Shown here: piece after piece, positions 56,102 to 56,187 of the stretch
Position numbering within the stretch: position 1 is the first letter of the stretch
How the letters are laid out: each line of letters opens with the position of its first letter
NCBI GenBank assembly: GCA_951406725.2
Contig: OX597826.1
Location: 62,682,001-62,746,000 of the forward strand
Length of the DNA: 64,000 nucleotides
Direction: 5' to 3'
DNA from: Octopus vulgaris
Lineage: Eukaryota
Notes under the pieces: generated by a model
Seen by the model: only the letters and a program-made list of their open reading frames with translations
What the model was told of the DNA's origin: nothing
The model's database searches: none
Translations under genes and position numbers: made by a program

Positions 56102-56187
56102 TTGGCTGATGAGTACTCAGCATCTTAAATCTGTTGTAATACTTACAACATTTAATAAAATGACGTAGTACGAAACGATCGTATCAA
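56102..56187 (+). ncRNA. Type I hammerhead ribozyme with canonical core
   Basis: TTGG-CTGATGA(56106-12)-GTACT...AGTAC(56167-71)-GAAA-CGATCG-TA-TCAA. Stem II is extended by TGTTGTAA/TTACAACA. Confidence 0.85.

Follow-up and report, generated by a model that had tools for sequence, protein, structure and literature searches.

Does the sequence at 56102-56187 of the window (the whole 64-kb stretch of octopus DNA that was analysed) specify a hammerhead ribozyme, is such a ribozyme likely to be active as it stands, and where did it come from? A preliminary description had put it forward as the best candidate for a live ribozyme, without naming a source.

Anatomy of the hammerhead motif

The motif is a type I hammerhead on the + strand, and every named element was checked at its coordinates (Table 1), with hammerhead numbering after PMC4209133. 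The intact CUGAUGA, GAAA and GUA elements, the five-base-pair stem II with a long inner hairpin, and the four-base-pair stem I with a single G-U pair, all reported in the preliminary description, are found in place. The palindromic CGAUCG described as stem III is also present, but the palindrome is in fact 8 nt long. CUGANGA, GAAA and NUH occur in order, the three helices leave the open end in stem I, and both the A15.1-U16.1 and G10.1-C11.1 pairs are present; by structural definition, the motif belongs to the metazoan type I hammerhead class. There is no extra nucleotide between A9 and stem II (56112/56113). Cleavage is predicted from these elements to occur 3′ of A56183, which is the site originally proposed.

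Table 1. Features of the hammerhead motif, its rival hairpins, its surroundings and the other motifs of the same build in the window.
Feature	Position	Strand	Remarks
Stem I	56102-05 / 56184-87	+	U-A, U-A, G-C, G-U; the G-U is the core-adjacent pair
Catalytic core C3-A9, CUGAUGA	56106-12	+	G5 is 56108
Long helix II region, 59 nt	56113-56171	+	5 bp, then an irregular rod ending in the 8-bp hairpin
Stem II	56113-17 / 56167-71	+	Five Watson-Crick pairs, G10.1-C11.1 first
Inner hairpin, 8 bp	56132-39 / 56143-50	+	Extendable via 56125-29/56151-55
Catalytic core G12-A15.1, GAAA	56172-75	+	
Self-complementary 8-nt segment, A15.1 to U16.1	56175-82	+	Contains CGAUCG, 56176-81
GUA triad	56181-83	+	U16.1 is 56182, A17 is 56183
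Rival hairpin sequestering C3-A6	56105-21 (56105-09 with 56117-21)	+	Mean pair probability 0.88-0.97, 37°C
Rival hairpin sequestering G12-A13 and the cut site	56168-84	+	Mean pair probability 0.74-0.77, 37°C
Left TA/TG microsatellite tract	56048-56074		TRF array 56048-56082
Short AT-rich 5′ remnant	56075-56101	+	
Tail between cut site and TA tract, ~37-38 nt	56184-56220	+	Putative 3′ end of inserted element
Right (TA)n tract	56221-56236		Putative insertion target
Second type I hammerhead motif	62186-62289	+	Same build as 56102-56187, unrelated sequence; core at 62191
Decayed third motif, probable	30410-30496	+	Core at 30413; G8-to-A variant, 62-nt rod-like spacer

Beyond A15.1-U16.1, stem III of the monomer can be drawn either as 1 bp with a palindromic tetraloop or as 2 bp with a 2-nt loop. 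Stem I can gain 3 bp via 56099-56101, past a bulged A56188; any longer extension is at chance level, with 311 of 1000 shuffles equal or better. The free fold of the 59-nt spacer is a single rod closed by G10.1-C11.1 (−11.0 kcal/mol), which is equalled in 11 of 1000 shuffles, while 28 of 1000 are equal or better when the closing pairs are fixed. Since the spacer alone folds as a closed rod, we regard helix II as long rather than as a 5-bp stem with an unrelated inner hairpin.

Statistical support and profile comparison

There are 21 CUGANGA sites on the two strands of the window, and the one at 56106 is the only one with a GAAA-closed stem II of at least 3 bp and no extra nucleotide. Over 4081 shuffles of the window, made block by block at the dinucleotide level, a descriptor fitted post hoc to the motif gives 0 matches. 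Because this descriptor was tuned after the fact, more weight is placed on two other tests, namely: a descriptor that allows one core mismatch and asks for a palindrome of at least 6 nt, with 2 matches in the window vs. 1 in 1055 shuffles; and a score-based scan, in which the motif scores 36 and a score of at least 34 is reached once in 1043 shuffles. A much looser descriptor finds 437 matches in 4081 shuffles, i.e. about 0.11 per window, and the whole 116-nt region folds no better than its shuffles (z −0.92). Neither of the two tighter scans nor the fitted descriptor gives a hammerhead match on the minus strand of the window.

The Rfam profile RF00163 (Hammerhead_1) aligns to a 121-nt fragment over 45 of its 45 model positions, with a 51-nt insert in place of its canonical loop II. 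The score of 16.5 bits (E 0.13) lies below the gathering score of 34, and the long insert is the likely reason. At the gathering score, Rfam gives 0 matches in the whole 64-kb window, and an E-value scan of 501 nt around the motif reports no hammerhead family. The motif resembles RF00163 in its topology, its full core, the lack of an extra nucleotide after A9, the G10.1-C11.1 pair, and a C-G base of stem III with a palindromic loop. It differs in that the insert replaces a 6-nt loop II, in having A17 rather than C17, and in its stem I of 4 bp plus a bulge with a G-U at the core.

Genomic surroundings

The motif sits in an island of ~145 bp, close to the ~150 bp first estimated, where TATATA lies 33 nt from C3 on the upstream side and 38 nt from A17 on the downstream side. 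The window as a whole is AT-rich and microsatellite-dense. Equally close two-sided TA flanking is seen in 390 of 45125 comparable TA-free intervals of the window, while such closeness on one side is commonplace: 14.3% of 58812 window positions have a TA tract no more than 45 nt downstream. By eye, an identical 7-mer is found at 56039-56045 and 56240-56246, outside both TA tracts; it is too short and AT-rich to count as a target-site duplication, and none could be defined.

The statement that no ORF lies nearby agrees with our searches. Among 119 filtered ORFs of at least 45 aa between 44 and 64 kb, Pfam identifies no relevant family, the single sub-cut-off match being a low-complexity SelP_N, and neither a reverse transcriptase (RT) nor a GIY-YIG domain is detected by Pfam in 30 read-through frames over five stretches of 54.4-62.4 kb. 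Across 231 of the 400 filtered ORFs of the window plus the 30 frames, Pfam yields Tc1/mariner and APE-endonuclease fragments far off and otherwise noise. Host-exon tests at 28010-28357 and 55043-55165 gave no credible relatives; the former (+) is a 116-aa non-repetitive open frame with neither a Pfam match nor a credible relative. TRF and a repeat finder show no tandem unit containing the motif. The searches brought to light no sign of a promoter, an exon or a transcript for it. Scanning GTDB genomes for its exact pattern and searching phages by blastn gave no match to it, and ARAGORN predicts 0 genes; the latter and a sigma-70 promoter scan are uninformative for a eukaryote.

Several other mobile or repetitive sequences were observed in the window. 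These include an APE-type, LINE-like endonuclease fragment at 4205-4651 (+), a Tc1 transposase fragment at 8144-8897 (−) and a mariner transposase fragment at 28933-29424 (+). For the last of these, Octopus proteins make up 3 of the top 4 among 102 matches, with a bee protein second; mariners move from host to host. Dispersed SINE-like repeats at 56817-56948 and 56662-56745 have copies that are 63-75% identical at 43231-43362, 37077-37259, 25164-25305 and 24974-25057. Another dispersed family, recognised by eye at 7040-7440, 53110-53280 and 54170-54400, is one that we take to be SINE-like; its copy at 7.0-7.4 kb appears internally duplicated and that at 54.2-54.4 kb inverted. Also by eye, ~53300-53585 is a MITE-like segment with long imperfect inverted ends that contains a CUGAUGA at 53451. 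Finally, a degenerate array of TAGGGT hexamers at 39656-39759 is reminiscent of interstitial telomere-like repeats.

Other hammerhead-like motifs in the window

The second motif in Table 1 carries a U4-to-C core variant, an 8-bp stem II within a 75-nt spacer, a perfect 8-nt palindrome, a GUU triad (N17 at 62284) and a 5-bp stem I that can be extended to 10. Its 5′ flank is U-rich, TATATA follows 43 nt past the cut site, and the scoring scan ranks it above the motif at 56106 (38 vs. 36). The U4C variant is reported to be less active in vitro, with viroid infectivity still possible (PMC3088659). In the decayed third motif, the palindrome is imperfect (6/8) and stem I is weak (3 bp); it too lies between TA tracts. 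Its score of 21 is not significant alone, given 190 matches of at least 18 in 1043 shuffles, and its 62-nt rod is equalled in 0 of 1000 shuffles, but the spacer had been partly selected for pairing. Rfam E-value scans of the 62.2-kb and 30.4-kb motifs detect no hammerhead family.

The motif at 56106 is the only one in the window with a mismatch-free core. Pairwise comparison of four candidates, 18 comparisons in all, detects no significant shared sequence (best 161/1000), and the motifs at 56106, 62191 and 30413 look like debris of different families with one architecture. All three share the + strand and the − strand has none, but the number is too small for significance.

A further arrangement at 7653-7751 (+) has CUGAUGA, GAAA, a near-palindrome and GUA, with the two core halves 80 nt apart, a 14-nt palindrome between them and a microsatellite soon after. 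It was rejected as a hammerhead on account of its weak stem I and a spacer that fails to close. The candidates at 18184 and 53451 find no support in the tighter scans.

Predicted folding, dimerization and activity

Hammerhead cleavage leaves 2′,3′-cyclic phosphate and 5′-OH ends. Whether the motif is likely to produce them was approached by computed folding. The active monomer fold lies 7.4-10 kcal/mol above the ensemble (three fragment lengths, 37°C) by nearest-neighbour energies that leave out core and tertiary contacts and were not calibrated on a hammerhead of proven activity. Two rival hairpins are predicted to trap the core (Table 1). The 7.4 kcal/mol gap is below the mean of 10.0 for shuffled versions of loop II, and 15% of 300 shuffles have a gap as small; since the gap is smaller than in most of these shuffles, the misfolding argument is a soft one.

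A pair of copies fares better. The double hammerhead is 13.6 kcal/mol more favourable than two monomer hammerheads at 37°C, via an 8-bp palindrome duplex, which also forms in the free cofold MFE, and the gap to the active fold falls to about 5.5 kcal/mol per copy. Searches of the window with blastn and nhmmer, however, find no second copy of the island, only the self match. Nor is a heterodimer of the 56106 and 62191 motifs clean, having 6 of 8 stem III pairs and a G-G at the core-adjacent stem I pair.

A tertiary contact might in principle be provided by a candidate 6-bp pseudoknot between loop II and the 3′ flank (56159-64 with 56197-202). Such a helix is not above chance (426 of 5000 shuffles; 1617 of 5000 for the whole loop), and it belongs to the inactive fold as well.

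Related ribozymes behave in several ways. Dimer action through a palindromic stem III is known for tandem PLE (Penelope-like element) or retrozyme transcripts (PMC4209133; PMC6765202). The axolotl HHR_Amex1, with a 1-bp stem III and a palindromic tetraloop, is reported to reach 6% cleavage in 1 h when monomeric and far more when dimeric; efficient monomer cleavage is described for most invertebrate retrozyme hammerheads, but these have a 2-bp stem III and a tetraloop (PMC7229834). A lone S. mansoni min-HHR shows no detectable cleavage and its dimers little (PMC4209133). The Anolis PLE hammerhead is reported to cleave only with its protein, and no RNA-seq reads ended at its cut site (PMC11167929).

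Taken together, efficient cleavage after A56183 is predicted to take place only in a dimer, and the suggestion that a minimal stem III probably makes dimerization necessary fits both the 8-nt palindrome and the axolotl kinetics. The lone copy, with its rival hairpins, is probably silent or weakly active here; it might act if a partner transcript or a protein chaperone were to refold it. The motif thus keeps its place as the best candidate in the window by virtue of its mismatch-free core, but the claim that it is live finds no support in the single copy, the imperfect heterodimer and the predicted trapping of the core.

Proposed origin

We infer that the motif is likely the stranded 3′ end (pseudo-LTR) of a PLE, or of a short element that a PLE mobilised, and we hold this reading with moderate confidence. 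Tandem copies on one transcript of the parent element would pair via the 8-nt palindrome to form a shared stem III, and the CUGAUGA, stem II and GAAA of each copy would cut the GUA site of the other. The PLE reverse transcriptase would then start ~40 nt past the cut site and insert the copy at a TA tract. If copying ended ~30 nt short of the core on its upstream side, what remained would be a solo hammerhead carrying a tail of ~40 nt.

The PLE hammerheads of PMC4209133 are type I, with a palindromic helix III and a G10.1-C11.1 pair, and occur mostly as scattered single copies; these copies are held to be “probably related to truncated PLEs”, and 5′-truncated PLEs retain only the 3′ hammerhead. 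The present motif shares with them the type I topology, the 4-5-bp helix I, the larger helix II, the palindromic 15.2-16.2 region, the dispersed single copies and the predicted dimer action. In the alignment of PMC4209133, inspected by eye, rows with a palindromic insert and A17 are found for Hydra, D. willistoni and M. japonicus, all of them PLE-linked. Naiad PLEs target (TA)n, a microsatellite bias has been proposed for Neptune, and 30-40-bp tails are described (PMC8557442). PLEs account for 6.83% of the O. vulgaris genome, in 190 families (PMC13282606). The unrelated motif at 62191 gives further support, since it also has a tail of ~40 nt before TA. The two tails, 38 and 43 nt before TATATA, are to be set against the 14.3% one-sided background.

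Other features speak against a PLE end. The motif lacks the extra nucleotide between A9 and G10.1 that is typical of PLE min-HHRs, although rows without it exist by eye for M. japonicus and Saccoglossus 2, one of them PLE-linked (PMC4209133). Moreover, its stem II and stem III sequence is nearer the canonical RF00163 consensus, i.e. the retrozyme type. The helix II region also differs, with 59 nt here vs. ~25 nt or less, by eye, in Figure S3 of PMC4209133, and no PLE ORF is attached. Because no RT, GIY-YIG or other PLE protein remnant is found nearby, the link to PLEs is one of architecture. The motif is not filed as a proven PLE because there is neither an ORF nor a second pLTR, and no extra nucleotide after A9.

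Alternative explanations

The strongest competitor, which we nevertheless consider unlikely, traces the motif to a non-LTR retrozyme, of which it would be a truncated solo monomer, with the long helix II as part of a rod-like circle. The closest profile is the canonical Hammerhead_1. The stem III of 1 bp plus a palindromic tetraloop is that of HHR_Amex1, and the motif shares low GC and a non-coding character with the axolotl, mussel and coral retrozymes (PMC7229834). It has no canonical loop 1/loop 2 contact motif, and retrozyme hammerheads without the usual loop contacts are described in mussel. A preprint (bioRxiv 10.64898/2026.07.22.740005) finds solo monomers to be common and scattered. 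The 64 kb contain neither a tandem repeat nor a second copy, however, and the island of ~145 bp is below the 170-400-nt range of retrozymes. The motif is not filed as a retrozyme because it lacks a tandem unit. Since the same preprint derives retrozymes from PLE pLTRs, this explanation overlaps with the one that we prefer. A PLE or retrozyme source, which the preliminary description did not name, is likely and makes the find an ordinary one.

An improbable variant of the PLE reading assigns the motif to the 3′ terminus of a TA-targeting PLE of Naiad type that has yet to be curated, in which case the Naiad “half cores” would partly be whole hammerheads with a long helix II. Cephalopod Naiads have (TA)n as their target, and the tag HHR_half_core is given to both Naiad_Ovul and Naiad_Esco (PMC8557442). 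In eight cases a second core half is found 35-50 nt away (PMC8557442), and the spacers here are 59-75 nt; widely spaced core halves are common to both. Against this, the curated Naiad_Obim and Naiad_Ovul 3′ ends available in PMC8557442 differ in sequence and, by eye, have the GAAA half before the CUGAUGA half, while a complete type I fold can be drawn here. The cephalopod Naiads are described there as old remnants, yet the present core is intact. Three 11-nt motifs taken from the window hammerheads give 0 matches in the PMC8557442 supplement, where line wraps can hide matches. As the curated octopus ends do not match by eye, the motif is not filed as a Naiad end. It was observed separately that at the 3′ ends of Naiad_Obim and Naiad_Ovul a short stem precedes GAAA, with CUGAUGA following ~25 nt later, the reverse of the type I order (PMC8557442).

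Domestication offers another route, namely a live monomer in an intron or non-coding RNA, like HH9/HH10, kept by selection. The amniote HH9/HH10 and Clec2 ribozymes are solitary genomic hammerheads too, and Clec2 has a long insert in one helix, but Clec2 is type III with the insert in helix I, whereas the present motif is type I with the insert in helix II. The mismatch-free core, next to neighbouring motifs that carry U4C and G8A, could point to selection; a young insertion would explain it equally. Rfam gives no HH9/HH10 match, no host gene was found for the motif, with no host exon in the frames and ORFs searched, and stem III is of the dimer-dependent type. We consider domestication quite improbable. 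In this reading a tertiary contact would be supplied by the long helix II or by the 6-bp pseudoknot; the complement at 56159-64 and 56197-202 exists, but at chance level and as part of the inactive fold.

Integration of a fragment of a viroid-like or virus-associated circular RNA is very improbable. ASBVd does have type I hammerheads with a short palindromic stem III, and RNAs of this sort typically have rod-like flanks (PMC6155905), but the window contains no opposite-strand ribozyme, phage and prokaryotic genome collections give no match, and several unrelated motifs per window fit mobile-element debris better. Lastly, the idea that a core, a GAAA and short stems came together by chance in AT-rich DNA can safely be set aside, as the rate for the very loose descriptor, the unremarkable fold of the 116-nt region and the sub-gathering Rfam score are outweighed by the three tighter tests (0/4081, 1/1055 and 1/1043 shuffled windows) and by a spacer that folds independently as a closed rod.

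Implications

The kind of ribozyme is already known: the palindromic insert, A17 and the missing extra nucleotide are all present in published rows. Taken alone, the motif at 56102-56187 is one more among thousands of animal hammerheads borne by retroelements. The 59-75-nt helix II region is possibly new, although Lunse et al. or the PMC7229834 supplement may cover long-armed forms. Among the literature matches listed, none describes an octopus hammerhead of this build, the Naiad paper being the only relevant title. The published min-HHR descriptor (PMC4209133) allows a stem of 3-7 bp, a loop of 3-10 nt and at most 9 nt for the second centre, and with that loop limit it cannot see a helix II of 59-75 nt. 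As two or three sequence-unrelated motifs in the window exceed the published helix II limits, genome-wide hammerhead counts may be too low.

A broader and more doubtful possibility, which we put forward tentatively, is that a long-armed form of type I hammerhead, with a helix II of ~60-75 nt and an 8-nt palindrome, makes up a large and as yet unreported class in octopus genomes, placed at the termini of several TA-targeting retroelement families that are unrelated to one another. If so, this class would have been missed by both the Rfam thresholds and the published min-HHR descriptor, and if the window is typical, two or three motifs per 64 kb would amount to tens of thousands of copies. The palindrome would then serve each family as its own pairing code, by which transcripts cut one another in trans. 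The claim that complete hammerheads are missing from Naiad PLEs merits renewed scrutiny by means of a long-loop descriptor. In addition, the intact solo copy at 56102-56187 offers an uncomplicated way of asking whether host transcripts are cut by stranded PLE hammerheads.
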